A stretch of 64,000 nt of DNA. It comes from Candidatus Binatia bacterium. GTDB lineage: Bacteria; Desulfobacterota; Binatia; Bin18. A program made the translations under genes and the position numbers. Numbering within the stretch: position 1 is the first letter of the stretch; each line of letters opens with the position of its first letter. Under the pieces are notes generated by a model. It worked only from the letters and a program-made list of their open reading frames with translations. It had not been told where the DNA came from and ran no database searches. Location of the stretch: NCBI GenBank assembly GCA_963666315.2, contig CAXXHG010000021.1:1-64000 (forward strand), given 5' to 3'. Shown here piece by piece: positions 23,189-41,524 of this stretch.

Positions 23189-23207
23189 GATGATTGGAGA
23201 ACCTTTT

Positions 23208-23239
23208 TGCTTGCAAGGGTTAGCGATTTTTGCTAGCGT
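23208..23239 (+). promoter_or_regulatory. XRE operator/promoter box 1 (TTGCAA-17-TAGCGT)
   Basis: TGCTTGCAAGGGTTAGCGATTTTTGCTAGC; -10 ends 6 nt before ATG (leaderless-like). Confidence 0.7.
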
Positions 23240-23245
23240 TCTTAT

Positions 23246-23614
23246 ATGGGCGGCAGCAGACCAGATCCGTATGTCAATCTTGGTGTGTTCATCAAGCGTC
23301 AGCGGGAATTGGCACAGCTCTCAGTTCGGCAGTTAGCAGATATGTGTGGCATATCAAATCCGTATCTCAGCCAAATTGAGCGCGGTCTGCGAACGCCGAG
23401 CAGCATGATCCTGCAGTCTCTAGCCAAAGGGTTGCGTATGTCAGCTGAGACCCTATACGTACAAGCCGGAATGATCGACCCGCAGGAGGCCGAGGCAAGT
23501 GATGTAGTCAAGGCCGTTTTGCATGATCCGGATCTCTCGGCACGGCAACGCGAGATGATGATCGATATGTATCGCTCCTTCCGGAAAGTCAACGAGGTAG
23601 GCGGGGGAGTCTGA
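23246..23614 (+). CDS. XRE-family HTH regulator, Rv0474/MLDSR-like
   Basis: SVRQLADMCGISNPYLSQIERGLRTPS...SAETLYVQAG...DPDLSARQR. Confidence 0.88.
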   Translation: MGGSRPDPYVNLGVFIKRQRELAQLSVRQLADMCGISNPYLSQIERGLRTPSSMILQSLAKGLRMSAETLYVQAGMIDPQEAEASDVVKAVLHDPDLSARQREMMIDMYRSFRKVNEVGGGV

Positions 23615-23636
23615 AAATCGTATTTTTTGTTATCAG

Positions 23637-23668
23637 TGCTTGCAAAAGTTAGCGCTTTGAGTTAGCAT
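23637..23668 (+). promoter_or_regulatory. XRE operator/promoter box 2 (TTGCAA-17-TAGCAT)
   Basis: TGCTTGCAAAAGTTAGCGCTTTGAGTTAGC, 24/30 identical to box 1. Confidence 0.7.
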
Positions 23669-23731
23669 TTATTTATCAACGAGGTCTGCGCCTATACACG
23701 CAAAAATCAAAACGCAACAGGGAGGTTTTTC

Positions 23732-24096
23732 TTGGCAGATACTATGTGGGGATGTAGCTCTTTTAGCAAGATGTTTGACGGGGCAAACAATCCGGTCGTC
23801 AATTTGACGGGGCAAACAATCCGGTCGTCAAGATGATGAGTGAGATGAACGCCCCGCTCAGCGAGTCAATGAAGCAGATGGCCGCTCAGTCGATTGAGTC
23901 TGGAGAAAAATGGGCGAATCAGGCCTTCGAATTGAACGCAAAGGCGACCGGATGGGCCAAGGATACTCCGTTTGCCTCGATTTTCGATACGCAGCGGACG
24001 TTCGCCCGCAAGGCTTTTGAATCGTCGACGGCAATGGCCCGCCAGATATGGCAGCTTGAGGTCAAGGCTGAAGAGACAGCTGAGACGGCTGTCTAA
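23732..24096 (+). CDS. Small amphipathic helical phasin-like protein; 5' end disrupted by a 29-bp duplication
   Basis: Ala/Gln/Glu-rich helical ORF 23833-24096; removing one repeat copy extends the frame to TTG 23732 with a GGAGG RBS. Confidence 0.6.
23774..23831. repeat. 29-bp perfect tandem duplication
   Basis: TTTGACGGGGCAAACAATCCGGTCGTCAA x2. Confidence 0.92.
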
Positions 24097-24161
24097 TTCG
24101 TTCGATCTGTATTGCGACGACAAGGGTAACGAGCCTGGCGTCGCTGCCCTTGTCTTTTTCT

Positions 24162-24875
24162 CTACTTCTCTTCTGAGGCGAGGCCTGCGGCTTCTCTCAT
24201 GCCTGCAGGCCTGACAATCAGCTTGCGGCCATCTCTGAGCAGGAACTGCTGCCGTTCTAACTCTTTCATATGCTCAGTGACTTTCTGCCGCGACGCACCT
24301 ACGAGATCGGCTAAGTCTTCATGCGTGAGTTGTAAGGTCAACATCATTCCACGCGCATCCTGAACGCCGAATTTTTGGGCGAGTTCGAGGAGCGCCAGCG
24401 CGAGCTTTTGGTGTAGGTTCGAACTCTGGAAGCGGGTATAGCGGTAGAGCAAGGCGAACCAACGTCCGACTGTCCCCTCCATCATTGAGCTAAACTCGGC
24501 AAAGGGGATGTCTAAGAGCGTTGTCACAAAAACGTCCGGTCGAACGGAACTGATCCAACAATCGCTAAAGGCTTCAGAGCGAAAGGCCCGGCACATACCC
24601 GGCATCAATGAGGTAATGCCAAAGAGTTCGCCAGGAGCGATTAAACTGACTAAGACGTGCTCTTCGTCTGGAGTAGGTAGGGACAGTTTGACAACGCCGG
24701 AGATCAAGAGATACACCGAATCCGAGGGGACTCCCTCGTTAAAGACAATTGTCCGTTTTTCGATATGGTGGAGGGTCATCTGATCGAGCAGCTGTTCGAT
24801 TTGGCGATCAGACGCCCAGGGAAATGCCTTGAGTCGGCGGATGGTTTTGACATTTAAGACTGGTGTGCGGGCCAT
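24162..24875 (-). CDS. Crp/Fnr family transcriptional regulator
   Basis: cNMP-like barrel (GELFG), HTH LTHEDLADLVGASRQKVT. Confidence 0.92.
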   Translation of the reverse strand: MARTPVLNVKTIRRLKAFPWASDRQIEQLLDQMTLHHIEKRTIVFNEGVPSDSVYLLISGVVKLSLPTPDEEHVLVSLIAPGELFGITSLMPGMCRAFRSEAFSDCWISSVRPDVFVTTLLDIPFAEFSSMMEGTVGRWFALLYRYTRFQSSNLHQKLALALLELAQKFGVQDARGMMLTLQLTHEDLADLVGASRQKVTEHMKELERQQFLLRDGRKLIVRPAGMREAAGLASEEK

Positions 24876-24963
24876 GTTTTCCCCATACAAGAATAGTAGC
24901 TGTCAGGCTGAACGTAGTGATTCAGCACTGCAGCATCCTTTCTTTTGTCCCTTCCTTTGTTCT

Positions 24964-24991
24964 TATTTTTGTCACCTAGGTGACAAAAATA
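24964..24991. promoter_or_regulatory. Crp/CooA-type site TGTCA-N6-TGACA within a 28-bp perfect palindrome
   Basis: TATTTTTGTCACCTAGGTGACAAAAATA. Confidence 0.72.
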
Positions 24992-25130
24992 CAAGATGCC
25001 TCGTGCACCCTGCTGTTTCTCTCACACTGAGATATGCATAGACGCGACCTGCTTTTCATGTAATATACTTGGCTTATAAAAAGACTGTGCATAGGGCACA
25101 AATTCTGCGTTTGACGATGAAGGAGGGCGG

Positions 25131-25568
25131 ATGCGAAACACTCAGATGGATCACAGACTACTTTCTTATGTGGTGATGGCCAGCTGCTTGTTTGTCTGGG
25201 CTTGTGGCGAACGGCCTATGGGACCGAAAGAAGAGCAGGCGATTCAAAATGTGAAGAGTTACCAACCCGAAGAGGGCTTCAGTGTTGTCTCGAATATTGA
25301 GGTGCGCGGGCAGGATGCTGGTCGCGCGGGCAATGCATGGACAATGAAGTCGTGGGAGGCCGGGGTATTGTCCCAGCAAGACCGTATTTACGATGAACTG
25401 AGTCAGTATTTCAATATCTTTGAAGCCCCGGGCGGCCGTTGGGTCCGGTTCTCGTATACGGATAAAGATGGGGTGCATGAAGCACTCTGGGAGACCGATC
25501 TCTACAAAAAGAAGGTCGAGGCGACAAATGACGTTGCCAAAGAACTCATGACGTCACCAACCCCGTAA
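25131..25568 (+). CDS. Hypothetical lipoprotein
   Basis: Lipobox-like VWAC after a hydrophobic stretch; GGAGG RBS. Confidence 0.7.
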   Translation: MRNTQMDHRLLSYVVMASCLFVWACGERPMGPKEEQAIQNVKSYQPEEGFSVVSNIEVRGQDAGRAGNAWTMKSWEAGVLSQQDRIYDELSQYFNIFEAPGGRWVRFSYTDKDGVHEALWETDLYKKKVEATNDVAKELMTSPTP

Positions 25569-25688
25569 CGCTCACGTACTGATCTGCCCGTGTGGTGAAA
25601 ACAAAGCGAGGGGGAACAGCCGTCATTCTGCTCCCCCCCAACCCTACCAGCTCGGTTGTTTTTTTCTCAGCATCCCCTTGGCGTCTGC

Positions 25689-26513
25689 TTATGCTGAAAA
25701 AGACGCAACAGTCAGGTTTGTTTCGCGTTCTTTCTGGTGCAGACGAGAAAGAATGTCTGCCAGAACGCGGTAGACTTGAGGGTTGACTATTAAGCCGATA
25801 TGGCGTCCTGTCACTTCCCGGTTCTCCCGGTGTGGATCAATACTGGCGTTCCACTCGACGACTTCATCTTGTTTCGAGAAAATGGATGTAAACCCAACCT
25901 CCTGCGGCAGCGGGGAAATCACACTGCGATTGAAGTGGCAGTTACAGTGCAGGGTACCGCACTCCGCAGGAAGCTCTCCGCGCCAGCGCCGAAAGGGTTG
26001 GAGGACGCGCGAAGCAAAAAGAACCAAAGGGCTGACATTTTCTGTGCGCTGTATGGGTGAGCCCATGGTCACCACGTAGCGTACTTGATCAGGAAAATTT
26101 GCGCCTAAGAACCGGGCCAACATACCGCCCAGACTATGGCCAAAAACGATGAGCGGACGGCCGGTCTCACGAGTAATCTGATTCAGCCGCCAACGCAGCA
26201 GATGTCCGGTCCGATTTGGGCAATCTATATTCCAGTCCAATCCGGAGAAATACGGGTTATAGCCCATCCGGCTCAGCCAGCCGGCTAACAACTGCAGGGT
26301 CCAGTCCCCGGCTAAGAAGCCGGGTATAAGCAAAACCGGCTGACCCGATACCTTGGGGCCGGGTGGATTGCGATAGACTGGATCGCGGAGTAAGGCACGC
26401 AGTTGTCGGTATGCGTCCGGGTATGTAGCGGTCAGTTGCCAGAACAGCGCGCCGAAGCTTGCAGTTTCAGCTGGTGCTGTAAAGGAGTCGGAAAACGAAG
26501 AGTGCGGTGCCAT
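25689..26513 (-). CDS. Alpha/beta hydrolase, triacylglycerol lipase/esterase-like
   Basis: PVLLIPGF, GHSLGG nucleophile elbow, DEVV, HIGL. Confidence 0.87.
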   Translation of the reverse strand: MAPHSSFSDSFTAPAETASFGALFWQLTATYPDAYRQLRALLRDPVYRNPPGPKVSGQPVLLIPGFLAGDWTLQLLAGWLSRMGYNPYFSGLDWNIDCPNRTGHLLRWRLNQITRETGRPLIVFGHSLGGMLARFLGANFPDQVRYVVTMGSPIQRTENVSPLVLFASRVLQPFRRWRGELPAECGTLHCNCHFNRSVISPLPQEVGFTSIFSKQDEVVEWNASIDPHRENREVTGRHIGLIVNPQVYRVLADILSRLHQKERETNLTVASFSA

Positions 26514-26548
26514 CCTGCTGCTGTGTCCGGGGTCGCCACTATGTTTTT

Positions 26549-26578
26549 GCTAGCAATGGGTGTTAACTTTTGCAAGCA
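26549..26578 (-). promoter_or_regulatory. XRE operator box 3 upstream of the lipase
   Basis: Minus strand TGCTTGCAAAAGTTAACACCCATTGCTAGC, same spacing as boxes 1 and 2. Confidence 0.68.
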
Positions 26579-26648
26579 TAGCAAAAACAATGACGGAACG
26601 GAAGCGAATGCAGACGAGTGGTAGCTGCCGGTCACAGACAAAGGCGGC

Positions 26649-27260
26649 TCAATTGAAAAGCAGCAGGTGACAGCTTTGGGGTAAACGGCGAGTGAGACCG
26701 TTGACCACATGGCCTCGCAGCATGTGATAAACCGCGCTGCGGCGGCTCACCCCCATCATGACTGTATCAACGGCAAGGATGTCGGCTGCCCGAGCAAGAG
26801 CCTCTGCGGCATTATAGGAGACTGTCCACACCGGGATGAGCTCAAACTCCTGGCGTTGGGCAGCCTCCGCCGCGAATCTAAGCGTCTCGAGGTCCTCTAG
26901 CCCGTCGATTATGATGAGCGCGGTAAAGGGGGCCTCAAAAACTAACTCATCCAGTAGGTGATCAAGATTACGGTATTTGCGTTGCGTCACATAGTTCTGA
27001 CATTTGTGCAAATCTTCCGGCCGCTCTTGAAGCGCCTCGAACAGGATCTTCCGCACCATTCGCTTGTCCGACTCGAAAGAGAGTGAGAACTGCAAAATCT
27101 GTACGGCTACGTGGCGCAGTGGGTCATGTGACGCAAGTTCGTTTTCGAAAACATAGAGACGCGGTTGTTTGCCCAGTAGGTCTATCAAGTAGCCATCCGG
27201 GATGTTCCGCTGTCCGCCCTTCAGCCCGATTTTTCTCTTAATATCGAGATAAATCCTCTG
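26649..27260 (-). pseudogene. Chimeric fragment: nuclease-like N-part fused to a universal-stress-domain C-terminus; truncated by IS6
   Basis: IPDGYLIDL...YVFENEL then AADILAVDTVMMGVSRRSAVYHMLRGHVV. Confidence 0.55.
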
Positions 27261-28100
27261 GGTACTGTCAAGTTATCGAGGCCCTTGTACAGCAGTGACT
27301 CTGCATGCCGTAATTGAGGCATGCCCTTACCTACCACAGACTCATATAAGAATCATCGGTTTCCGCCCGAAATCATTGCCCATGCGGTCTAGCTGTATCA
27401 CCGTTTTAGCCTCAGTTTCCGCGAAGTCGAGGAACTCTTGGCCGAGCGGGGCGTGATCGTCAGCTACGAGGCCGTGCGCCTCTGGTGTCTCAAGTTCGGG
27501 CAGACCTTCGCCAAGAAGCTCCGACAGCGGCGTGGACGACCAGGCGACACCTGGCATCTGGATGAGCTATTCATCCGGATTAGGGGCGAGCGCTATTACT
27601 TGTGGCGGGCCGACGATCAGGACGGGCAGGTGCTGGATATTCTCGTGCAGAAACGCCGCAATACTGGGGCGGCTAAGCGCTTCTTTCGCAAGTTGTTGAA
27701 GGGTTTACACTACGCCCCCAACCGCCTGGTTACCGATAAACTCCGTAGCTACGGGGCAGCCTATCGAGTCAGTATGCCGTCCGTCCATCACTGTACAATA
27801 CAGTACGCCAATAATCGCGCCGAAGTCTCCCACCAACCCACGCGCCAGCGCGAGCGCCACATGCGTCGCTTCAAATCTTTGCGCCACGTCCAACGCTTTC
27901 TCTCCGTCCACAGCCCGATCAACAATCTCTTTCGGGTAGGTCGCCACCTCATGAAGGCGGCGCATTATCGGCTGTTTCGAGATCAAGCATTTGTGACCTG
28001 GCGAGCGGTGACGACGGGACTGGCAGCAGCCTAAGGGGAAATCTCATTCGCCCTCACAACACGTGAGGTTTGTGCTATCTCCCGATAACTTGACAGTACC
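27261..28100 (+). mobile_element. IS6-family element, copy 1 (transposase with premature stop)
   Basis: 18-bp perfect terminal IRs GGTACTGTCAAGTTATCG; ORF 27321-28034 with TAG at 27390; WHLDE, TDKL, NNRAE motifs. Confidence 0.93.
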
Positions 28101-28280
28101 CCAACAAGGCCACTGGCTCCGGCGATACAAATCGTCTTGGATTCAGTCACCCTCTCTCCGTTTGTTGAGTCATCCTTCGATAAAATCTGGAGCAACCACC
28201 TCGTCTATGACCCGGAAGTCTCTTTGACACAGGGCCTCCTCCCGGATGCGACGCATTTTCGCTTTATTTTCCTCTGACAT
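28101..28280 (-). pseudogene. Two N-terminal gene stubs: ester cyclase-like (28170-28280) and Rossmann-fold VTESKTICIAGASGLVG cut by IS6
   Basis: Manual translation MSEENKAKMRRIREEAL...IDEVVAPDFIEG*; GASGLVG abuts the IS end. Confidence 0.55.
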
Positions 28281-28316
28281 GGTTCTCTGCCAAACAGCAC
28301 TCATGAAAGAGCACCG

Positions 28317-28727
28317 CTAGCTATCGAATGTCCCACCAATAGCAGCCGTGTCGTTGTATTCGCGCAAATACGTGAGCTTCCCATCCGGCGCGAATCGGAA
28401 TTCCCAGATGAACGCCATGTCGCAGGCGCGACCCGTTGCGACCGACTTGCCGTTTTTTTCTACTCCGGTCGCTGCCAGAATACGTGTCTCCGGGTCGAAA
28501 ATAAAATCATGGAATACGAGTTCGCCGATCACCCACGTCTCTGACAGTTGGGCTAAATACTTTTGCAATCCCGACACGCCCTCGTAGCGGCCGCCAAACG
28601 GAATATGGGACGGTAGAAAATTCTCCCAGGCGAAATCATCCGTCATCATTTTCACGCACTCGGGGAAGTCCGTCAGGAGGAATCCCATATACTTGTTCAC
28701 TGTGTCGATAGCCTGTTGTTTTGTCAT
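28317..28727 (-). CDS. NTF2/SnoaL-like protein
   Basis: IPFGGRYEG, ATGR, REYNDT. Confidence 0.82.
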   Translation of the reverse strand: MTKQQAIDTVNKYMGFLLTDFPECVKMMTDDFAWENFLPSHIPFGGRYEGVSGLQKYLAQLSETWVIGELVFHDFIFDPETRILAATGVEKNGKSVATGRACDMAFIWEFRFAPDGKLTYLREYNDTAAIGGTFDS

Positions 28728-28892
28728 TTTCTCACCTCGCTCGTGTGGGTTTCTACCGGAGACGCATACTGTACGATGCGGCACGCGCTCCGGGATACGG
28801 ATTCTGCTTCACTTATAATAAATTGTCCATTTTAGGTTAGGGACATTAATGGCCGGTCTACTCGCTGACACCTCAGGCTGAGCCCTGCTACA

Positions 28893-28920
28893 GGTACTGC
28901 CAACTTAACGAGGGGCTTAC
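28893..28920 (+). mobile_element. Isolated degenerate IS6 end
   Basis: GGTACTGCCAACTTAACGAGG resembles GGTACTGTCAAGTTATCGAGG. Confidence 0.45.
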
Positions 28921-28955
28921 GGCCAGGAACATTGTCCGTATAGATTCAGATCTGC

Positions 28956-29411
28956 CTACTCCGAATGCCCTTGTGGCTGCGGATAGCGCCCCGTCACATC
29001 TTTATACCCGTGCATATGCGTCGGAGAGATGCGTACGATGATCTGATCTTCCTCACTATTAAGTTTTCCATAGGTCTCAGCCAAGTCCTGGCCCATATAA
29101 CGCCCCCCAATCCGCGTCGCCCAAGGGTGCCGTTGGTCGGCATCGTCAGACAGGACGGCCGTGCCTTCGAGTTCGACGTAGGCGAACGGCGTCACCTCAT
29201 CATCGACACACAAACTGACCCGGGGATCACGGCGCAGGTTCTTTCCCTTGCGCGAGTCCCGCCCCGTCATGAAGACGATCGTCTCCCCCTCAAGATCGTA
29301 CCAGATGGGCACGATATGGGGCCGTCCGTCTTTGCGGAGCGTGGCCAGCTTGCCGGTCCGCACCGGACGGCGTAAGAAATCCCAACATTCTTCACGTGTC
29401 ATGCGTTCCAT
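28956..29411 (-). CDS. PPOX class F420-dependent oxidoreductase
   Basis: LATLRKDGRPHIVPIWY, KGKNLRRDPRVSLCVD. Confidence 0.9.
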   Translation of the reverse strand: MERMTREECWDFLRRPVRTGKLATLRKDGRPHIVPIWYDLEGETIVFMTGRDSRKGKNLRRDPRVSLCVDDEVTPFAYVELEGTAVLSDDADQRHPWATRIGGRYMGQDLAETYGKLNSEEDQIIVRISPTHMHGYKDVTGRYPQPQGHSE

Positions 29412-29575
29412 TACTACTCTCCCCTCCAGCTGATCACGACTTCTGCTCTGCCCAGCCTTCGTTTAGCGGCCTCCAGTAGAGGATATGAAACTTCCGCGAC
29501 GAATTTCCACGTATCGCCGACTTTTTTATACACATCATCGTAGTACGGGTCTATTCCAAGTGGGTAGGGGCAGAG

Positions 29576-30414
29576 CGCACTGTCAAGTTATCGGGGCAGG
29601 GTACGAAAATCACGTAGTGTGAGGTAAGATGAGGGGCATCCTTACGCCACTTCCAGCCCCATTGTCACGTCTCGCCAGGTCGTAAAGGCCCGCTCTCGAA
29701 ACAGTCGATAGTGGCCCGCCTGCATCAAGTGCCGTCCAATCCGAAAGAGATTGTTGATCGGTCCATGGACAGAGAGGAACCGTTGAACCTGTCGCAGAGA
29801 CTTGAAGCGGCGCATGTGGCGTTCGCGTTGGCGGGTGGGTTGGTGAGAGACCTCAGCCCGGTTGTTAGCGTACTGCCTGGTGTAGTGAGTCACGGATGGC
29901 ATGGTAATCCGATGAGCAGCCCCATAGCTGCGCAGTTTATCAGTGACCAGCCGATTGGGAACGTAGCGCAGCCCCTTCAACAACTTGCGAAAGAACCGTG
30001 TGGCCGCACCTGTATTCCGGCGTTTCTGCACCAGAGTATCAAGCGTGTCTCCATCCTGATCTACTGCCCGCCACAAGTAATAGCGCTTGCCCCTGATGCG
30101 GATGAACAATTCATCCAGATGCCAGGTGTCGCCTGGCTGTCCCCGTCGTCGGCGTAGTTTCTTGGCGAAGGCTCGCCCAAACTTGAAACACCACTGCCGC
30201 ACCGCTTCATGGCTGACGATGACACCGCGTTCGGCCAATAGCTCTTCCACCTCCCGGAAGCTCAGGCTGAAACGGTGATGGAGCCACACCGCGTGGGCGA
30301 TTATTTCAGCGGGAAACCAGTGATTCCTATAGAGACTTGTGGTACGAGAGGGCATCCCATGATTACTGCACTTCACTGCGACGCTTCACAAGGGACCAAC
30401 AACTTGACAATACC
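29576..30414 (-). mobile_element. IS6-family element, copy 2 (intact transposase ORF 29642-30376)
   Basis: Imperfect IRs GCACTGTCAAGTT / GGTATTGTCAAGTT; DDE motifs as in copy 1. Confidence 0.92.
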
Positions 30415-30611
30415 CTGCAGATCGTTCGATCCGTAGCAAACCTGATTGCGGAAGAAAACCCGCTCGATACTGGATCGAAATTGGGAAACTCTGCGCATTG
30501 CTGACGTCTGACCTCGATCTCACGTTCCTACCTGTCGTTTCGTGGTCGCCTGTTTCCTACTGCGATCCCCTAGGACCAGCATCTTTCGACTAAATCCGCT
30601 AAAAGGATAGC

Positions 30612-30760
30612 ATGGAGAGCGCGTCATCAGGCAGCAACGCACCGAGTATACCTCCTGGCATCACACGTGAAGACGTTGAAAAGGCGATCCGGGAGTTCGA
30701 GGCAGGAGTCGAACATGGCTTTGGGCCTTCCACGTTTTACGACCTTGCGGTCAAGCCGAC
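30612..30760 (+). pseudogene. N-terminal stub resembling the head domain of McrA/McrB-like restriction proteins
   Basis: IPPGITREDVEKAIREFEAGVEHGFGPSTFYDL. Confidence 0.45.
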
Positions 30761-31542
30761 AGGGAAGATTGGCCTGGATCAGCCCATGGGCATGCCCTAA
30801 CTGGGAGACGGTGCCGTCAAGACAGCAGACCTGCACGCCACCCTAGGCCAACTACATTCCTGCGCTTGGCTAATTGCAGATCGTAGCTTCGTCGGACTTC
30901 ATTGCGACTATTCGGCCCCATCACTGATGTACCCCTCCTCGTTGCGTGCGAACATCGTTGCTTCACTTCATTGCGACCAGCGGCACTCGGCAACCCGGCC
31001 CACCCACGGCCCGATACAGATCCTCCGGATAAGCGCCTTCCAAGTGGCGGCTCCTTCGTTCAGGTGCGGGAAAGGTTCATCGGGCACCGCACAGCCGAGG
31101 AACTCACAGAAAGGTTCGTTATGGACGAATATAGTATCCCGTCAGCTACTCTGGCTCGCTACTCCGCTATTCTCCTCGTTTTGGGGCCGCCATCAGCACT
31201 CCCGCGCGACGCCATCGCCAGCTTGTTTGGTGCGGAGACGTTCCGCGAGGTGTGGGGGGTGTAGGTGAATGGGGATTCGACTTGGGAAGGTGGAAAGAGG
31301 CTCGGTGATTGTGTATAGCGATATGCGGATTTAGCGCCTCTGCGGTGCAACTCTCAAGAGCGGAGAGTAGCAACTCCCCCGTACGACTTTAACTCTTGAC
31401 AGCCGCGCGAGGTTGGGAGTAGATCACGAAGAGATGGAGGCAGCACGACGCTGCTACAACGGTTGATTGAGTTGCTCTGCGTCTGCCGGTAAAAAGCACG
31501 CAAGTGTCGTGCACAACCTGTGTAAAAAGGGAGGACCATGAC

Positions 31543-32771
31543 ATGGGAACTCAAACAGACGGGACGAACGGAAAAAGCTGGGCGCAAACATATCCAGAGC
31601 TAGGTACCGGGCCAGTACCGATCGAGCCGTGTATTTCACCCGAGTATCATGCGCTGGAACGCGAGCGGATTTTTAAGAAAGTCTGGCTGAACGTCGGTCG
31701 GGTGGAGGAAATCTCCAAGGCCGGGGACTATTTGGTCAAAAACATTGCCGCAGGTGAAGCCTCACTGCTGATCGTGCGGGGCAAAGATGGCACCATCCGC
31801 GCGTTTCACAATATGTGCTCGCATCGGGGCAATAAGGTCGTCCGGGATGGCCCCGGCACGTGCCGGGGCTTGTTTGCCTGTAAGTTTCACGGCTGGAGCT
31901 ATAATACTGAGGGGCAGCTTACTTTTGTGCCGGATGAAGATCAGTTCTTTGATTTCGATAAAACTGCCCATGGCCTCACGCCTATTGCCGCAGACACGTG
32001 GGAGGGGTTTATTTTCATTAACCTCGCGCCCCAGCCCAATGAGACGCTGACAGAATACTTAGGCGAACTCGGAGAACGGCTGCACGGCTTTCCATTTGAC
32101 CAATGCACCACGCGCTATACCTATCAGACCGAGGCCAAGGTGAGCTGGAAGGTAGCTGCAGACGCTTTTCAAGAAGGCTACCATGTGGCGTTTATTCACG
32201 CCCGCTCCCTGCCAAGCTATGGCCCCAAGGAGAACCCGCTGGTGCACCTGCCCTGGGTGAAGCTGTATCGCGAGCCCCCGCAGTTTTTCGGTGGACGGCA
32301 ATCCCGAGCCGACGCCGACGCCCTTCCAAGCCTTGGTGCATAAGCTGGGGCGCTCGTTTGATACCATGCTGTCGGCCTCGACTGATGACCAGCCACCGTA
32401 ACTGAACCCGGGTAAAAATTCCGAATTGGGGTTTCGACATCAACGTCATTTTCCCCAATTTCTTTATAGATGTGCTCGACGGCATGTATTTTACCTATCA
32501 CTTCTGGCCACTAGCCGTGGACCGCACCTTGTGGGAGTTTCGCCAATACTTTCCACCAGCTACCAGCGTAGAACAACGCTTCGGCCAGGAATATAGTAAG
32601 TGCCTGTTTCGGGATGCTTTGCTGGAAGATCTAAGTACCCTCGAGCAAACACAAACGGCCCTGGCCACCCGCGGCAAAACACACTTTCTCTTACAGGACA
32701 ATGAAGTGTGTGTCCGCCACGGGCATAAGGTGGTCGAAGATTATGTCGGCTTCTATTCCAACGAAGCCTAG
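31543..32771 (+). pseudogene. Rieske aromatic ring-hydroxylating oxygenase alpha subunit, frameshifted
   Basis: CSHRG/CKFHGW Rieske ligands, EGYHVAFIH, C-part LLEDLSTLE in another frame. Confidence 0.88.
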
Positions 32772-32837
32772 GGACCGCGCAGCGGGGCCGTGCGAAAAGT
32801 GCCCGACACACTCCGCACTCAACACACGAGGTAGAAC

Positions 32838-33170
32838 ATGAGATTGTTGCCGGAAGAGTTTGCAGACCTGGAGCCGTTGGCTGGGCATTGGGCCTTGGCC
32901 ACGGAGACTGAGCGCAATCGCCAACGCCTTGCTAGTCCCATGTCCGAGGTACAGGCGCTGTACGACACCTTACTACCGCGCATGGAGGCTGTGCTGGGCT
33001 ACTTGGGCCAGTTTCCGCTGGATGCCCTGCCCGAAGACGCCGAGCGGTTATTTCGATTAACGTTGTCGCTGGCCGAGGTGGCGACCGCCGTAGAGAATTT
33101 TAAGCAGACGAGTGTGGTGGATGGCTACGACTGTGCGCGGCTAGAGTTTTGCCACGACCGAATGAATTGA
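32838..33170 (+). CDS. Small helical protein associated with the Rieske oxygenase
   Basis: LPEEFADLEPLA..WALATETER; GAGG RBS. Confidence 0.72.
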   Translation: MRLLPEEFADLEPLAGHWALATETERNRQRLASPMSEVQALYDTLLPRMEAVLGYLGQFPLDALPEDAERLFRLTLSLAEVATAVENFKQTSVVDGYDCARLEFCHDRMN

Positions 33171-33364
33171 GCTGGACGTGACTCCAGGTGCTAGCCTGCG
33201 AGGATGTCAACGTATCGCATTCGGTCAGGGTGGTCCCATTCGGGTACGCCCGACAGTCACATCGAATCGTGAAGCCATAATAATGGCGCAGTATTCGGGG
33301 GAGCCAGGCGACAAGCCCGCAGCGCAGGGGTGGCCAAGAGTACCGGCTGGGCAAAAAGAGGGGG

Positions 33365-35190
33365 ATGAATATGCAATCGAAGTTACACAGGCATACCCTG
33401 GGAAGGTCAGTCATGCGGTTCACCGCGCTGCGGTATGTAATGGGGTGTCTTGGGTTGGGGCTGATGGTACTAGGCGGCGCGGAGGCAAGTTGGGCGGCAT
33501 CTTCTGTAGTCTCTGGCACAGTGACCGATACGCACGGGGTGCCCGTATCGGGTGCCATGATTACCGTACTTGGTCAGGGCCCGGGGCCGCGTTCCATTAG
33601 CGTGTTTTCCGACAAGACGGGTGTGTACCATACCCCGAGCCTCGGCTGGCAGGTGTCGACAGACACGCTGAGGCTGAAGTGCCAGAAGATCGGCTATCGG
33701 CAGGCCGCGCTCACCAACACATTCGCCGGCGAGGGCAGGGTCGGCGTCGATTGTACCCTGTCCGGAGTGGAGAATGTTGCTGATCAGGTGGCGCCCGCGG
33801 ACTGGTTAGCGCGCGGCCAGATAAGCGATGAGGCTGGCCGGCGTGATGCCCTGCTGTTGTGTGGCGACTGTCATGCCCTGCCGAGTAAGGAAGTCCAGAC
33901 CATTGCCGAGTCGTTTGAGTGGTTGACGGAAGACGAGCGCAAGCAGGCCTGGCGCGACATGGTGCACCAGATGCGAGAAGTGTTTATGCGCTTCTTTGAG
34001 GAGGAAGGAGGTCGCGGCTCAGTTGGGACAGGAGGCGGCCAAAAAGGCAGGAGAGACTTTTATTAATAACGCTGACGAGGAGCTGATTACCCCGTTTTTG
34101 ACCGCACATTATTCCGGTTAATTATGACGATTTTAGCCTGCGTGATTGGAAAGAATGCTGCCAGGGACCGCCCGTGGGAGTAAAGGGAACGGTCATCCGC
34201 GAGTACCAGTTGCCGGTGGACTATAAGAAGTGGACGCGTGAAGTCGTCGTGCCCAAAGGGTCACGCTACATCTGGGCCACGGACAAAACCGGTGATCGGT
34301 TGGTGCGCTTGGACCCCGACACAGGAGCGCTCAAGTGGGTACCCGTCAAGACCGAAAATCTAGGGGGGCCACACACCTTGCTTCCCGACGCTGAGGGCAA
34401 TATCTGGATCTCGCTTGAAGATGAGGGCACGTTTAGCGCGGTTCAACCCGCTGACCGAAGAAATGGAAAATCTGGCCGCCGTTTGTGGATGACAACGGCA
34501 TTGTCATGCTGACCCATGACCCCGCCCAAACCGCATGGCGCGAAGTGGGCTTCGACCCCCAGGGACGGGTGTGGATAACATTGATTAGTCACAACATGAT
34601 CGGAAGCGTGCACCCCGAGACCGGCGAGGTGAAAGCCTATCCTTTGCCCGCACCCAAGGGCCGAGCAGGTGCGACCGCATTTGTGTATGGCTCAGCCATG
34701 TCCTCGGACGGCAAGACGGTGTGGTGGTCGCAAATCCAGGGCAATCTGGGCTGGTTCAATACGCAGACGTTGGAGTCGGGCATTGCGTTAGAGTTTCCGC
34801 GCGGCACGGGTCCCCGGCGTATGGCTATCGACGACCAGGATGTATTGTGGGTGCCGCTGTATGGCGCGGGGCAGCTACTGGCCTATGACACCCAGGCGCG
34901 CAAGGAAGTCGGGCGGTACGATCTGCCTAACCGCAACGCCGCACCGTATGCTGTCACCTGGGACCCGCAACGGAAAGTCGTGTGGTGCGGCACCATGAAC
35001 GCCAACACCATTTACCCAGTTCAACCCGCGCACCAAAGGGTGGATACAATATCCCATGCCACGCGACGGGGCTCGTTTTCGTATGTTGACCCTTGACGGT
35101 GACGGCAACGTGTGGGGGACTTATGGCACGTTTCCCGGTCGGCTCGCCCGTCCGACCATGATAATGAAACTGGAGCCCGCGCCCACGATA
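33365..35190 (+). pseudogene. Exported carboxypeptidase-regulatory-like + CxxCH + Vgb-like beta-propeller protein, multiply frameshifted
   Basis: VSGTVTDTHGVPVSGAMIT; CGDCH; repeats DAEGNIW, DPQGRVW, GPRRMAIDDQDVLW across 4 ORFs. Confidence 0.75.
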
Positions 35191-35319
35191 CGTAACGTCA
35201 GGGTCGCAAGCTTCAAGGAAGAACGGTTGCGGAGCGACCACCTTCGAGTCCAAAATCCCTTGGAGTGGGAGCGTCTTGAGTCTCATTTTCTTAATTTGAC
35301 AATACCGCTGAAGACCTTG

Positions 35320-36430
35320 TTTGAGCCACCGTTGCAAGTCCTGAAACTATACCCGCCACCGCCCGACGTGGATGACGCCACAACGCCACAAACCGGGATC
35401 ACGGTATGGCAATTCCCCGAGTGGTTCATCACCCAGGATGTTTATGCTGAGGCAAGCCACGCCAGCGTGCGTTCACGAATGCTGGTTCATCGTCGAATCC
35501 TGACCAAGGGGAAATTTATTGACGACAGCAGGACAAAGCGAGCCGTGGTTCCGATCCGTTTCGTGCGGGCCTGCCGCAGCGGACACACGGGAGACATTGG
35601 CTGGTATGACTTCGTACACGGAGACGAAACCGACTGTCATCGGCAGCTCTGGATCGAAGAGCGCGGTACAACGGGTGATCTATCGGAAGTATGGGTCCGA
35701 TGCGAATGCGGCAAGGGCGAGCGTGACATGCTTCAGGCATCCATGAAGACACTGGGTCCTTGCGATGGCAGTCGCCCCTGGCTGGGTCCGTACACCAAGG
35801 AGAAGTGCGGAGAGCCGAATCGATTGCTGATCCGTACAGCCAGCAACGCTTACTTCTCACAACTCATGAGTGTAATCTCGTTGCCGGACCGGAACGAATC
35901 TGTCCGTGAAGCGTGGAGAGGGTTTGGGATTTCATCGGCGAGGTCGAAGACCTCGACATGCTCCGGTACGAACGGAAGAAGGCAAAGGTCCGGACCGGGC
36001 TCTATGGCTTTTCGGACGAGGAAGTCTTTGAGGAGGTGAAAGTACGTCGCGGCCAATCTCCCCAACAGACTAAGACGATCAAGCAGGCGGAGATGGAAAC
36101 GCTGGGTGCCGCCAAGACGGAACTTGGCGACGACCGGTCGGATGGGAACTTTCACGCTCGGACGCTGCCTGAATCGGCGTGGCATTCTTCTGAATGGATG
36201 AAGCCCATCGAACGAGTTGTGCTAGTTCATCGCCTCCGCGAAGTAATCGCTCAAGTGGGCTTCACGCGGTTTGAGGCAATCTCGCCGGATATTGACGGTG
36301 AGTTGGAGGTGGGCGTGCGGCGTGCATCACTCGCCCGCGAAATCTCATGGTTGCCAGCTATCGAGAATCGCGGCGAAGGAATTTTTCTCCAGTTTAGCAA
36401 AGAGGCTGTTCAGAGGTGGCGTAGTCAGCC
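35320..36430 (+). pseudogene. Internal fragment of DUF1998-type DISARM DrmB-like protein
   Basis: FPEWF, PIRFVRACRSGH, CDGSRPWL, RTASNAYF, RLREVIAQVGFTR, WLPAIENRGEGIF. Confidence 0.8.
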
Positions 36431-36818
36431 CATTTTACAATGCGCTGCGCCTGATGAGACCTGTTTGCTGTGGATTCTTCACATAATGGCACTCGTCGGT
36501 GACGGTCAGATCGACTTGGCAAGAGGTGACCGGCCGTGATCCGATACTGCTAGCACCACGGTGAGGCGTTGCCAGCTAGGGATTGAAGGCGTTACTATCG
36601 GGGCCAATACCGTCTGCTTTACTGGAGAAGACGAAAAAGGCAAGAACCTGAGTACAACGGTCTTCGGGCCAAAGCAGAACCTCGCCTTTTGGGAGAAGGT
36701 CTTCCAGACAGGCAAGGCGCCGACGGGCATTCAAATCCTGGCGCAGCCATTAGATCTGAACCAGATGATCCAAGCACGGGGAGAAGGAGATTAATCGTGA
36801 AGCGTCTCCCTCACGGAC

Positions 36819-37330
36819 GTGAAGTTGACCCAGGCTCTCCGGTCTGTTCAGGCCGCGGTCAAAGAGGCCTTGATAGGACTGAATGAGGCCGCCGCTCAAG
36901 TGATGGCCCAGGGAGACTACGTAGTGGCGACGACCTTGGCAGCCAAGGGACAGGAGATCCAGCAGTTCCGCGCCGAGGTGGACGCCCTTCGTGACCGATG
37001 GCGAGCAGTGCGTGGTGCGGGTGCAGATGAGGCGAAGGCGTCGGCGACGCCCTGTGGGCCTACTACCAGCCCATCCTGAAGGCTCTATCCGAGGCTGATG
37101 GTGAGGCGAGCCGAGCCGATCTGGAGACGAAGGTCGAGCGGTTGCTGGGCGACACCGGGAAGCCTGGAGATCGGGAGCGAATGGCGCGGGGCCAGGAGCG
37201 ATGGCAGGTCATGATCCGGCGCGCCCGTAAACATTTCGTCACCGAAGGCTGGATCGAGGCGGACACGGGCAAGGTATGGAAAATTACGGACGCGGGCCGC
37301 CGGGCCGCGGAGAAGCCACTCGAGCCATGA
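36819..37330 (+). pseudogene. Protein with Mrr N-terminal winged-helix domain, frameshifted
   Basis: YYQPILKAL...RWQVMIRRARKHFVTEGWIE...VWKITDAGR. Confidence 0.65.
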
Positions 37331-37655
37331 AGGACTGTCACCTCTCCCCGCTGATCCCACGAAACAAAGTCGGTGATATCGGCGTAGGCGATCCGCTCGC
37401 ATTCGCGCAGCACTTCAGTCGCCTCGACGCGGAGACGAGCCTCGATAGGGGCAATTTCCTGCTTCATTGCCGCCTGTACCTTAGCCAGGGTTAACAGCCG
37501 CGATGCAGGACCGTCGCTGTCTTGGCGCTGTAGCCGGCTTTGATTGCCGCTTGAGTCCCGTTCGGGTTCTTAACGTTTTCCAGCACAAAGCGGCGTTGCC
37601 GTAGGGTGAGAGGATCGGATGCCCGAATGGTATCTGGGGTGTCTCTGTCAGCCAT
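37330..37655 (-). pseudogene. Phage terminase small subunit remnant
   Basis: LTLRQRRFV..NPNGTQAAIKAGYSAKTA then EVLRECERIAYADITDFVSW. Confidence 0.75.
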
Positions 37656-38299
37656 GCTGGTCAGTATAGTCCAGCGAAAGTTACAAAAAAACGGGATTTT
37701 GGAGGTATCGGCCATGTAGCCGTAGGCAGCGTATACTCCGAGCGAGAGCACCGTACTTATCTGTGTTTGCTTCGGTGAGTCCGATCCCATTGCGAAGGCC
37801 GGAGAACCGGGTTCACGCAACTTTGCGTGTGTCTCCGTAAATTGTGACAGCGCTTGGTCTCCTTTGCACTTTGTGGACAGTTTGCAGTCATGGTTTCCGA
37901 ACCATTGAACCTCGATACCAACTGTTGTAGTGCCTTTATATGATGACGTGTAAATGATGACTTGAGTATTTCCGCCGTGGGCGGATTCGCCATGTCGTGT
38001 CGACTCAGAGATCGAATGAGTGGAAGCGGCGATGTCTCATGACACCGTTGATAGCCATCGCTGTCGAAGTATGTCGGTTCGTCTCGATTGATCAATATAG
38101 GACGAACTGTTCGTGCTGAAGGAGCTTAGAAACCCCTCATTCTGTTAGACTTTGGACGCTTGCCATAGGCCAGCATCAATCTTCTCATCGGTAAACAGCT
38201 AGAGCCGAAAACCGGCGTCGTCCGGAAACCCGCCTATTTCTATGGCAAGGCGCCAATCCAATCTGTGAACCTGCGGGCACCCCCTACGTAGGCAACTTG

Positions 38300-38446
38300 G
38301 TATCGCACGTGCCATGTTCTGCGTCTCGGCTTCCAAACCGAGGCCCTGCTGCCTGATTTTGTCATTGATCGCTCCGGTTAGACCCGAGACTTGATCGTGA
38401 TGGCGTACGATATGGCCGGTTTGTCGGAGCATGGAGCGTCCGCTTA
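38300..38446 (+). pseudogene. Decayed GNAT-like C-terminal fragment
   Basis: RLGFQTEALLPDFVIDRSG*TRDLIVMAYD. Confidence 0.4.
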
Positions 38447-39935
38447 GACGCTGGTGCTAGACTGAGTGCTGGGAAGAGCCTCATGAGGCCGCGTTGTCAT
38501 GCGAAGTTGGGCTTGCGGAACGCTGAGAGAATTGTTTTGCTGCTGACGGAGCTCGCTGAACGATGCTCGTAGGCACTCGATATAGGTCCACACGTCCGGC
38601 ATGAGTTGGGGATCAACGGTGACGCCTATGGTGAGCTTTTGATTATAGCTCGCAATAGCATGGAACAATCCTATATTTGCGGCTAATGGACCCATGGAAA
38701 AAAGGCGGTGCCTCTTATGCCCGGCGAGGTAGAGCGGAATCTGGGGGCCGGGGATATTCATCACCACGGTATTGGCAAGAGTCATTGGGGATGGCATGTG
38801 TCCGACCAGAGCCTGCCAGGCCGGTGGGACCCAATTATACACAGACTTGATGGCATGAAAGGTACCGGCCTGATCTTGCTCTTGTAGTTCTTCGCTTGCC
38901 GCCTTCTGGCAGCGAGACGTAGGATGGGGTCTGTAATCCCAATATAGAGCGGATCAGCATAGTTGAGGTGCGGTCCGCAGGCTGCGCGTTACGGTGATTC
39001 CGCGGCTCATGGCGTTTGAGGTTCATTGGACACGCGGTGCGCAGCTCAACGCCGTCGATTTTCTGTCCCTTGGCTTGTAGATAGGGTCCTAGCCCGCCGG
39101 CAATAATGGCCAGGACTACATCATTGACCGTGCCTCTCAGGACAGAGCGAATAAAACGGACCTCTGCGTACGACAGCTCAAGCCAGGCAAGTTGGCGTTG
39201 GCCTGACAGCGATGTATTAAATGGGGTCGATGGCACCTGCTGCAAGAGCGTTGGAATGACGTTGATGACGGCGTTGGCCATGCGCTTGGAATAGATGCCC
39301 TGCGCGGCAGGACGCAGCAGACGAAAGCTCATGTCGGCCCAGCGCTGAGCCACTTCTGTAACACGGTCTCGAAATGCCTCTTGGAGTAATGAGAGTGTGT
39401 CCGCTAGAGGTTCTGCCTGCCATGTTCCCGTCCGCTGCTGTGCGGGTTCTCCATCCGGCTTGATGTCGTGCAGGACCAGCATAAGGTCAATTCCCGAGAC
39501 ACCCTCAAGCATGGCTTGGTGGACGAGTGCCATGACCATGGTATTCCCGTCAGGGCGTCCGTGCATAAGAATCAGCTTCCAAAGCGGGCGCCTTCTGTCG
39601 AGCGGGGAGGCAAAGAGCTGCCCGCACACCTGAGACAGCACGCTGTCATCGGCTGGGTCGGGCAGGCTGACTTCTTCGATATGGTGGGCGAGATCGAAGG
39701 TGGGGTCATCTTCCCAGGTAGGATGGGCAATACCGAGCGGAGAGAAGACGACCTTCCGGCGGTACTGCGGCAAGCGGTGCAAGCGACTTTCGATCAGGTG
39801 CAACAGCGTATCTCGGGACAGATGGCCTTCGTATAAGCTACAGCCGCCGATGTGCATGGCAGCATCCGGCTTCTCGCTATACAGGAAAGCGGCTTCGGTC
39901 TGGGTCAGCCGTCGTCTTATAAATGTTTGTGCCAT
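38444..39935 (-). pseudogene. Wax ester synthase/diacylglycerol acyltransferase (WS/DGAT), frameshifted near 38850-38950
   Basis: MHIG, WEDDPTFDLAHHI, PLDRRRPLW, HQAMLEG, TVNDVVLA, NIPGPQIPLYLAG. Confidence 0.9.
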
Positions 39936-39963
39936 GTCTGATTAGTGAGAAGATTTGGGTGTG

Positions 39964-39988
39964 AAAAAAAAGAGGGGCGCAGGCCCCT
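39964..39988 (-). terminator. Intrinsic terminator/attenuator upstream of WS/DGAT
   Basis: Minus strand AGGGGC-CTGC-GCCCCT-C-T8. Confidence 0.7.
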
Positions 39989-40037
39989 GGGGGGCTATAT
40001 TCCTACTTGTTATGATTAGGCGGCGATGCGTTTGATG

Positions 40038-40478
40038 CTAGACGTTGATTTTTTTGGCTCCGGAGAGCTGTCTTGTACGACCGGAGTTGCCCTGAGCGCA
40101 GTGGTTTTCCTCTCGGAGTGCCCGGATCTCTGCCTGTAGGGCCTTAGTGTCTGCACGAGACGGGAGGAGTCCGGCCGCCTGGGCGAGCCCGGTCAGCACG
40201 GTTTTTGTAAACGCGTTCCCCACCTGTTGCCAGCGCAGGAAACCCTCAAGCGAACGTGCGGTCGTCTGTGCAAACAGTGGCATACGATACCAGCCATCAA
40301 CCGTGCGTGAGGCGAGTCTGACCATAGCATCGTAGCCAGTCCAGGCTGTCGCCGTAGTTTCTTTTTCATTTCCGAAGCCCAAACCCCAACGCGTGCCTGC
40401 CATGGGCAGATCGAAGAGGAGAGCCTTATAGGCGATCATGGCATAGGACATATTATTTACAGTATCTTTTTCTAACAT
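40038..40478 (-). CDS. Hypothetical PhaE/granule-associated-like helical protein
   Basis: GLLPSRADTKALQAEIRALREE coiled-coil end similar to PhaE-type proteins. Confidence 0.5.
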   Translation of the reverse strand: MLEKDTVNNMSYAMIAYKALLFDLPMAGTRWGLGFGNEKETTATAWTGYDAMVRLASRTVDGWYRMPLFAQTTARSLEGFLRWQQVGNAFTKTVLTGLAQAAGLLPSRADTKALQAEIRALREENHCAQGNSGRTRQLSGAKKINV

Positions 40479-40565
40479 TACCGTTTTCCTTTCAGCGTCT
40501 CGTCAGCGTCTTGTATTGACGCTCTCTAGTCTAGAATGATTGCCTTTTGTGGCCAAGAAAATAAT

Positions 40566-40632
40566 CGTCACCTAAGTGACTCAAATGTACTTTCAGTCCT
40601 GACTGTGTGTATTTTTTGTCTCCTTTGTGACA
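40566..40632. promoter_or_regulatory. Two Crp/CooA-type sites
   Basis: CGTCA-CCTAAG-TGACT (40566) and TGTCT-CCTTTG-TGACA (40617). Confidence 0.58.
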
Positions 40633-41400: not shown

Positions 41401-41524
41401 CACCTTAGTACCACTACATTGTTAGATTCGTTGCCATAAATCGGCCCACAAAGGCGAAAAATACCTTTCCCCTGCCTTGTTCTGCTGCTAGGCTAGAATA
41501 CACATGCAAGCAGGGAGAAGGGCA

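Follow-up and report, generated by a model that had tools for sequence, protein, structure and literature searches.

Introduction

PhaR of Cupriavidus necator and Paracoccus denitrificans is an autoregulated repressor of the phasin gene PhaP that is thought to be titrated by the granule surface, and the CRP protein of Escherichia coli activates class I and class III promoters from single as well as tandem sites. In Rhodococcus jostii RHA1, MLDSR (RHA1_ro02105), a protein of 126 aa, is described in the accessible part of one report as binding the promoter and the operator of its own operon, as repressing or activating according to its dose and as being sequestered by lipid droplets (PMC5504291); the box published there reads 5'-GNT(T/A)GCTNNTGCTANC-3'. 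Rv0474 of Mycobacterium tuberculosis is presented, in the available sections of a second report, as a copper-responsive autorepressor, the homologue from Mycobacterium smegmatis being without the copper motif (PMC10884836). Here we describe a gene cluster at positions 23,208 to 40,632 of a 64,000-nucleotide stretch of DNA from an uncultured Candidatus Binatia bacterium of sediment (contig CAXXHG010000021.1, positions 1 to 64,000; hereafter the window), in which an XRE regulator of the MLDSR/Rv0474 type, a phasin-like gene, a Crp/Fnr regulator and a lipase-like hydrolase accompany a homologue of wax ester synthase/diacylglycerol acyltransferase (WS/DGAT) and a short gene resembling phaE, the partner gene of class III polyhydroxyalkanoate (PHA) synthases. 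The cluster appears to form the core of a storage-inclusion regulon of its genus. On balance, the most likely reading is that two regulators, of which one is of the actinomycete lipid-droplet type, serve PHA granules; a sequence-only reading of the same DNA had proposed a regulon for wax ester/triacylglycerol (TAG) bodies instead. Judged from gene content and promoter boxes, the novelty lies in an MLDSR-type regulator outside Actinomycetota that is apparently wired to a PHA-type phasin and a hydrolase, in a putative Crp-type regulon of class-III-like synthases with a short PhaE and in WS/DGATs whose active site is altered, the kinds of component protein themselves being known.

Results

All seven genes and both sequence motifs were found where the sequence-only reading had located them. 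The features that carry the argument are the following.

23208-23237, + strand: motif 1 site A, putative promoter/operator of the XRE gene, GCTTGC-N4-GTTAGC-N7-GCTAGC, kept in 9 of 9 genus loci
23246-23614, + strand: XRE regulator of the MLDSR/Rv0474 type, 122 aa, Pfam HTH_3 at residues 16-68 (E 6e-13)
23637-23666, + strand: motif 1 site B, putative promoter/operator of the phasin-like gene, TGCTTGCAAAAGTTAGC...GTTAGC, kept in 9 of 9 genus loci
23732-24096, + strand: Phasin_2-type gene, disrupted, with a remnant open reading frame (ORF) at 23833-24096
24162-24890, - strand: Crp/Fnr regulator, 242 aa, cNMP_binding PF00027 (E 2e-13) and HTH_Crp_2 PF13545 (E 3e-12)
24970-24985, no strand: motif 2, perfect palindrome TGTCACCTAGGTGACA between crp and a divergent 145-aa gene, kept in 9 of 9 genus loci
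25689-26513, - strand: alpha/beta hydrolase, 274 aa, lipase/esterase-like, with a GHSLGG nucleophile elbow
26549-26578, - strand: motif 1 site C, putative hydrolase promoter/operator, kept in 9 of 9 genus loci
38444-39935, - strand: WS/DGAT homologue, PF03007 (E 2e-46) and PF06974 (E 4e-18), with the motif HQAMLEG
40038-40478, - strand: short PhaE-like protein, 146 aa (152 aa in relatives), no Pfam family
40566-40632, no strand: motif 2 pair, CGTCACCTAAGTGACT and TGTCTCCTTTGTGACA, imperfect, 51 bp from centre to centre, 5' of the PhaE-like gene

For comparison we used 24 other genomes of the same uncultured Binatia genus, to which G013 and G016 belong, and further Binatia genomes of other families, including G025, G032 and G040. 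Among the 24, matches to the phasin and to the hydrolase were found in 22 genomes each, to the XRE regulator in 21, to the WS/DGAT in 20 and to the PhaE-like protein in 19, the genomes without matches including some of 65-89% completeness and one of 97%. In the 18-kb loci of six relatives the block is contiguous and lies entirely within ~7 kb, in the order PhaE-like gene (3 of 6), WS/DGAT, small ORF, hydrolase, lipoprotein, crp, phasin, XRE. The genes are thus found together in the genus, and the proposal of a joint locus, for which the sequence-only reading had named missing co-location in relatives as grounds for rejection, stands.

Motif 1 (TTGCAArrGTTArC-N9-TAGC) matches at 23211 (+), 23640 (+) and 26549-26575 (-), three matches in the window against 0.26 expected, a count that none of 100 shuffles reached. 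When up to three mismatches were allowed, the same three sites were the only ones in the 4.99-Mb genome. The 30-bp motif that had been noted before the XRE, phasin-like and lipase genes is borne out by relatives: 9 of 9 genus loci have it before all three genes. In G025, a member of another family, it stands before the phasin gene as well. GCTTGC-N4-GTTAGC is present at all three window sites, and its hexamers overlap -35-like TTGCAA and -10-like TAGCnT elements that stand 17 nt apart; at site A, TTGCAA is followed after the 17-nt spacer by TAGCGT. Since the ATG of the XRE gene lies 6-7 nt past this -10-like element, both in the window and in relatives, a leaderless, autorepressed XRE mRNA is suggested. 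Moreover, the box reaches into another phylum: GCTTGC-N4-GYWAGC, with at most one mismatch, occurs within 200 nt upstream of the XRE homologue in 70 of 78 actinomycete loci, with 11 matches in the other 895 kb, and the exact string TGCTTGCAA[AT]AGTTAGC stands upstream of the homologue in 31 of these 78 loci and likewise at 23637-23653 of the window. The hexamer type and the 4-nt spacer agree with the published MLDSR box, and box positions 7, 10 and 12 differ from it.

The actinomycete loci were obtained by scanning an alignment of the XRE protein against the genomes of 185,579 species and keeping the best 80 of 583 confirmed matches. Among these 80, 78 are Actinomycetota homologues with 51-61% identity over residues ~11-116, and the remaining two come from metagenome-assembled genomes named 'Candidatus Binatia bacterium', which show 82% identity and contain the same cluster. 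The resemblance to Rv0474 and MLDSR that had been recognized earlier is upheld by these identities and by the retained operator of that family; the 78 homologues include no Rhodococcus or Mycobacterium, and the likeness to the two named proteins themselves is putative. A sequence search of the Protein Data Bank (PDB) with the XRE profile returned only generic XRE/SinR/ClgR/DdrO helix-turn-helix domains. Downstream of the actinomycete homologues there is usually a helical protein of 160-260 aa starting with ..TPLYAxAGxxDLA.., and among 76 crudely chosen downstream ORFs the N-terminal motif P-L-Y-x-x-A-G-x-x-D-L was present in 44 and at least two PAKKA-like motifs in 23. We take these proteins to be MLDS/HBHA-like, from the general features of HBHA and from the description of MLDS in PMC5504291, an assumption unconfirmed by family models; no family for them was found in NCBIfam. 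The pattern supports a location of the actinomycete XRE family upstream of putative MLDS/HBHA-like genes. The window XRE gene precedes a Phasin_2-type gene and not one of the MLDS/HBHA type. The earlier suggestion that the regulator acquired another kind of partner, a protein of phasin type, together with a lipase-like hydrolase is supported.

Within Binatia the XRE regulator is patchily distributed. Besides the genus itself, G025 has a copy with 72% identity, and more distant copies occur in G038 (49%) and G034 (42%), whereas 12 other genomes of the class gave no match. In a tree calculated from the 109 columns kept, for which only the best 80 matches were sampled, the 11 Binatia rows group together in a single clade (support 95/57) surrounded by rows from Actinomycetota. 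Since this tree is unrooted and its sample biased, we claim no donor. At L122 (G034:C321, 4114-4854) the gene after the 42%-identical homologue encodes a helical protein of 123 aa that fits no known family, and the two may be another regulator/coat pair. In six Acidimicrobiia loci (L046, L070, L076, L087, L090 and L094) a protein of 410-470 aa, not MLDS/HBHA-like, follows the XRE homologue, and no operator box was seen upstream of the homologue in these six.

The connection to PHA genes comes from the PhaE-like gene and its relatives. In G013, G016, G025, G032 and G040 the PhaE-like gene lies directly upstream of a class-III-type PhaC of ~360 aa, and the same holds for G034, where the PhaE-like match falls within a 531-aa open frame and crp, PhaC and high-GC frames that overlap one another make up the locus. 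The order is phaE-phaC-phasin in G025, G032 and G040, the phasin-like gene thus standing directly after PhaC in these genomes and after the XRE gene in the window's genus, and it is crp-phaE-phaC in G032 and G034, where a crp homologue adjoins the pair. The PhaE-like family has 214 cluster representatives (E <=1e-3) among 1.84 billion proteins; with lengths of 146-202 aa, compared to ~330-370 aa for full-length PhaE, its members are short, and weak matches were obtained for 2 of 70 to PF09712 (E <=0.01) and for 2 of 70 to PF05597, in the C-terminal LPxxxDxxxL heptad region only. The C-terminal tail of the window protein departs from that of a 96%-identical relative. PhaC1 contains the catalytic-cysteine box GYCFGG, and its orthologue in G025 scored 298.7 bits on TIGR01836, below the cut-off of 365.3. 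A complex predicted for PhaC1 and the PhaE-like protein of G006 received weak support, with a score of 0.45 against 0.00 for the best of three controls. Of 80 solved complexes, 58 passed the mark for this score, as did 2 of 110 mismatched pairs; scores of 0.60 or below were seen in only 7 of the 80 and in both of these mismatches. The runs for this pair showed at least 40% contact agreement and a predicted local confidence (pLDDT) of at least 59 for the partner.

Two further loci contain PhaC genes. The window's own genome carries, at C23:22307-24640 (L124), a Crp-box pair, a small helical partner that is spread over two frames, PhaC2, spread over three, and a GNAT acetyltransferase. A conserved second locus of relatives, for example L117 (G006:C1:3594972-3599054), comprises a canonical WS/DGAT, a DUF4440 gene, a Crp-box pair, PhaC1 and a CBS-domain protein, of which the window's genome keeps DUF4440, the Crp boxes, PhaC1 and CBS (C15:173820-176551) without the second WS/DGAT.

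The Crp/Fnr regulator reaches no NCBIfam equivalog, and by eye its N-terminal 40 residues contain no Fnr-type cysteine cluster. Motif 2 (TGTCAC-N4-GTGACA) forms a second set, separate from motif 1 as had been proposed, and the two sites of the pair upstream of the PhaE-like gene lie at 40566 and 40617. Its count in the window is not significant (5 against 2.0 expected, with 9 of 100 shuffles reaching 5), and we regard the motif as real because the same positions are conserved in relatives, which also secures the earlier observation of a second motif before the Crp gene and the PhaE-like gene. Before every PhaE-like gene examined the two boxes of the pair are exactly 51 bp apart. Likewise, 51-bp pairs precede both class-III-type PhaC loci of the genome, at C15:174564/174615 (PhaC1) and C23:22307/22358 (small partner/PhaC2), and in the main clade such a pair stands before PhaC1 in 12 of 12 loci; G013 and G016 have one before phaE-phaC1. 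In addition, motif 2 is found in the phasin promoters of 9 of 9 relatives, ~62 nt upstream of the inferred start site, and is absent from the phasin promoter of the window. No motif 2 box was found at WS/DGAT genes without a PhaE-like gene in front (G013, G016 and G014). The Crp-type protein is likely to control synthesis, as had been suggested, at the PhaE-like and PhaC genes, which have the pairs; the WS/DGAT itself has no box in these three genomes.

In relatives with an intact phasin-like gene the protein has 111-112 aa (MADNAWNC..FNKMFD..NPFVKMM..) and its ATG is preceded by GGGAGG. The window gene begins with TTG at 23732 where relatives have ATG, and an exact 29-bp tandem duplication (23774-23802 and 23803-23831) shifts its frame. 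Moreover, a 23-nt stretch with a motif 2 box, present between the XRE stop codon and motif 1 in 5 of 5 aligned relatives, is missing from the window. These lesions are not artefacts of the window assembly: contigs from runs of three studies, one of which may be the window's own source, match the window with 0 differences and 0 gaps at 23000-27290 (X1), 23000-26729 (X2) and 23260-23916 (X5). By its sequence the phasin gene is crippled in the window strain, through the duplication, the lost Crp box and the change of start from ATG to TTG. The duplication could revert by deletion between the repeats and might be an on/off switch rather than a dead end. On the Phasin_2 model (PF09361; cut-off 24.9) the window remnant scored 23.6 bits and the homologues from G006, G025, G032 and G040 scored 19.5, 26.0, 21.4 and 16.0 bits, respectively. 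Profile-profile comparison with actinomycete MLDS/HBHA-like proteins gave an hhalign probability of 0.1%, and on this ground the idea that the phasin-like protein is a shortened MLDS was dropped; compared with the PhaE-like protein in the same manner, the probability was also 0.1%.

The WS/DGAT gene of the window is split into two ORFs. Set against the nearest relative, which is 95% identical in DNA, three short homopolymers (at ~38953, ~38910 and ~38544) are each 1 nt shorter; the near-identical X1 contig has four gaps against the window in 38103-39196, and the frameshifts are probably consensus errors of the assembly. The orthologue in G006 scored 341.9 bits on TIGR02946, above the cut-off of 309.95. 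All eight cluster orthologues (the window, L013-L018 and L022) contain HQAMLEG, encoded at 39500-39540 of the window and falling in residues 133-151, and this subfamily shows 62-92% identity across the genus. HHxxxDG is present in 4 of 4 other Binatia WS/DGATs examined, including the second copy of the genus. Among the best 120 database homologues of the G006 orthologue, HQxxxEG occurs in 17 of 17 with at least 69% identity; in the whole set HHxxxDG occurs in 78 and HYxxxEG in 8, 15 fall outside the motif pattern and 2 are spurious. Both histidines of HHxxxDG are reportedly essential. The accessible part of PMC5407786 describes this motif as catalytic and as conserved in all family members, and with HQxxxEG in its place synthesis of wax esters or TAG by the cluster is doubtful. 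No other WS/DGAT was found in the window's genome, and no WS/DGAT match in G025, which has the phasin, the PhaE-like protein, the XRE regulator and the operator. Between the PhaE-like gene and the WS/DGAT the window has one further feature, not found at the same place in G006.

39973-39988, - strand: terminator-like hairpin followed by T8

The nearest solved relatives of the hydrolase by sequence are true lipases, with weak E values of 2e-5 to 1e-3. Its AlphaFold2 model (pLDDT 82) gave a Streptomyces lipase as the best Foldseek match (template modelling score 0.57), followed by esterases and monoacylglycerol lipases, and its database relatives are named triacylglycerol lipase, esterase/lipase or carboxylesterase. 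Identification as a PHA depolymerase was without support from the PDB sequence matches or the 50 best fold matches.

The remaining features of the cluster are a putative lipoprotein, an insertion and a small ORF.

25131-25568, + strand: putative lipoprotein, 145 aa, signal/lipobox-like N-terminus by eye, no Pfam or NCBIfam family
26649-38198, no strand: insertion of 11.6 kb splitting the block, absent from six relatives
38199-38432, - strand: small ORF 3' of the WS/DGAT, of which only the N-terminal ~40 residues are conserved in relatives

The putative lipoprotein gene is syntenic in the genus, and in G025 the XRE gene has a homologue of it as a neighbour. The insertion contains a USP-like gene, two IS6/IS240 transposase genes (inverted), SnoaL-like and PNPOx genes, a broken Rieske oxygenase and a terminase fragment. 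At 27306-30370 the inverted transposase genes, with 792-nt arms that are 77% complementary, surround the SnoaL-like and PNPOx genes and, as predicted from this arrangement, make up a composite-transposon-like unit; the insertion sequence ends ACTGTCAAGTTATCG are repeated at 27264, 28083 and 29579. At 31100-36500 the Rieske oxygenase and its neighbours lie in several frames and ~91-93%-identical strain contigs differ by a dozen single-base indels, so that the broken frames reflect either gene decay or consensus errors. The conserved flank of the cluster encodes a secreted Glu/Ala-rich protein of 96 aa (41066-41356), with an internal 57-nt repeat at 78 nt spacing and 75% identity, an HNH endonuclease (41504-41839) and an extracytoplasmic function (ECF)-type sigma factor (41877-42437).

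Discussion

In the PHA-granule reading, the Crp-type protein would recognize TGTCAC-N4-GTGACA and would most likely activate synthesis genes in response to a small-ligand signal. It would do so at the phaE-like gene and at both phaC loci, in relatives also at the phasin gene from a class-I-like position near -62, and would act on its own divergent promoter too. The XRE regulator would most likely repress itself, the phasin gene and the hydrolase gene by occupying their promoters and, by analogy with MLDSR on lipid droplets and PhaR on polyhydroxybutyrate, would be released when inclusions form. In most of the genus the phaE-like gene would have moved in front of the HQxxxEG paralogue of WS/DGAT, and in the window strain the phasin arm of the regulon is broken.

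Several observations weigh against this reading. The assignment of motif 1 to the XRE regulator and of motif 2 to the Crp regulator is putative and was made by adjacency, analogy and co-occurrence across genomes. The phasin remnant of the window and its G006 orthologue fall below the Phasin_2 cut-off, and the AlphaFold2 model of the phasin is a helical hairpin of poor quality (mean pLDDT 59.9). The PhaE-like protein of the window has no significant Pfam match, subthreshold alignments to PF09712 covering only the C-terminal end of the model, and of the 19 genus genomes in which a PhaE-like gene was matched, 17 have it next to WS/DGAT and not next to PhaC. Moreover, 15 genomes possess a second, canonical WS/DGAT, which in 14 of them is located 1.4-6.8 kb upstream of PhaC1, and these two adjacencies keep a link to neutral lipids in play; linkage of WS/DGAT and PHA genes is noted for other phyla in the accessible part of PMC10351704. 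To this are added the lack of a PHA depolymerase among the matches of the hydrolase described above and the interruption, in the assembly, of both PhaC genes and of the small partner of PhaC2. These interruptions are either real or assembly errors, and they make PHA synthesis in the window strain uncertain.

The original proposal of a wax ester/TAG lipid-body regulon, in which the phasin-like and PhaE-like proteins would coat droplets, the WS/DGAT would be under Crp control and the lipase under XRE control, draws on the fact that the regulator family, as set out in the accessible part of PMC5504291, controls a lipid-droplet protein in Rhodococcus, on the resemblance of the hydrolase to true lipases and the triacylglycerol lipase names of its relatives, and on the two adjacencies just given (17 of 19 and 14 of 15). 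The gene order phaE-phaC-phasin in other Binatia and the Crp-box pairs before PhaC genes point elsewhere, as does G025, where phasin, PhaE-like gene, XRE gene and operator occur without a WS/DGAT match. Moreover, there is no Crp box before the WS/DGAT of G013, G016 and G014, a terminator-like hairpin parts the PhaE-like gene from the WS/DGAT in the window, and the sole WS/DGAT of the genome carries HQxxxEG, its window version being HQAMLEG. With this evidence the lipid-body proposal of the sequence-only reading was given up as the preferred explanation and is considered unlikely.

A bolder extension of the PHA-granule reading, which we consider quite unlikely, would make the MLDSR-type XRE protein a general sensor of hydrophobic inclusion surfaces that moved from Actinomycetota to Binatia, brought its operator along and today responds to granules of PHA or of PHA mixed with lipid, the HQxxxEG WS/DGAT and the captured PhaE-like gene with its Crp promoter forming a new two-part granule enzyme or scaffold. 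The HQxxxEG protein might then not act as a wax ester/TAG synthase but modify polyester chains, by esterification or capping, or help to form hybrid inclusions.

We regard it as very unlikely that the XRE protein is a copper- or metal-responsive or general stress regulator like Rv0474, with an incidental link to storage genes. Rv0474 is indeed described as a copper-responsive autorepressor, but the same report, in its available part, gives the M. smegmatis homologue as lacking the copper motif (PMC10884836); in addition, the XRE, phasin and hydrolase promoters are the only places in 4.99 Mb where the operator is present, and the actinomycete XRE genes are usually followed by putative MLDS/HBHA-like genes. 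Finally, it is hardly credible that motif 1 is a strong shared promoter and motif 2 a chance palindrome, with genes that are neighbours by descent and no dedicated regulon, as the plausible -35 and -10 hexamers within motif 1 and the unexceptional window count of motif 2 might suggest, for the conservation of motif 1 reaches beyond the hexamers, the 17-mer precedes the XRE homologue of another phylum in 31 of 78 loci, and the place and 51-bp pairing of motif 2 are kept at several unlinked loci and across families.

If the PHA-granule reading is true, a kind of regulator so far known from the lipid droplets of actinomycetes alone would function, along with its operator, in a phylum unrelated to theirs and would serve another type of coat protein, which would suggest a general bacterial way to sense the amount of storage inclusion. 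It would further define a Crp-type regulon devoted to PHA synthases of class III type whose partner subunits are very short, and it would draw attention to a conserved group of WS/DGATs in which the active site is changed and which is linked genetically to PHA genes. No publication on such a regulon was found, nor one on Binatota and polyhydroxyalkanoate, and among the papers listed for MLDSR and lipid droplets none, by title and abstract, deals with other phyla.

Compared with known systems, the synthase genes resemble the class III PhaE-PhaC pairs of Allochromatium vinosum and Synechocystis in the ~360-aa PhaC, in its G-x-C-x-G-G box and in the small helical partner on the 5' side, with a phasin on the 3' side in other Binatia. 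They differ in that the partner has 152-202 aa and no significant PF09712 match, that PhaC remains below the TIGR01836 cut-off (298.7 versus 365.3) and that the partner gene has moved beside a WS/DGAT paralogue in the window's genus. The latter protein has both domains of the AtfA-type WS/DGAT of Acinetobacter baylyi, PF03007 and PF06974, and its G006 orthologue passes TIGR02946, but the active-site motif in the window is HQAMLEG and not HHxxxDG. Similar to the sites of E. coli CRP, motif 2 is a 16-bp palindrome that lies ~62 nt before the inferred phasin start in relatives and occurs in pairs 51 bp, or about five helical turns, apart; the half-site is TGTCA here, not TGTGA.

On the side of the XRE regulator, the predicted autoregulated repression of a phasin gene is shared with PhaR-PhaP, from which the locus differs in that the regulator belongs to another family, XRE, and that a hydrolase is a further predicted target. 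The closest likeness is to MLDSR-MLDS of R. jostii RHA1, where, as here, a small XRE protein (126 aa there, 122 aa here) is encoded directly 5' of the gene for the main inclusion coat, and where GNTWGC-type hexamers with 4-nt spacing, overlapping promoter and operator, make up an autoregulation box of the kind predicted for motif 1. In the window, in contrast, the downstream gene is of the Phasin_2 type and unrelated to MLDS/HBHA-like genes, the putative operator is also found at the hydrolase promoter, and the host belongs to Binatia and not to Actinomycetota.

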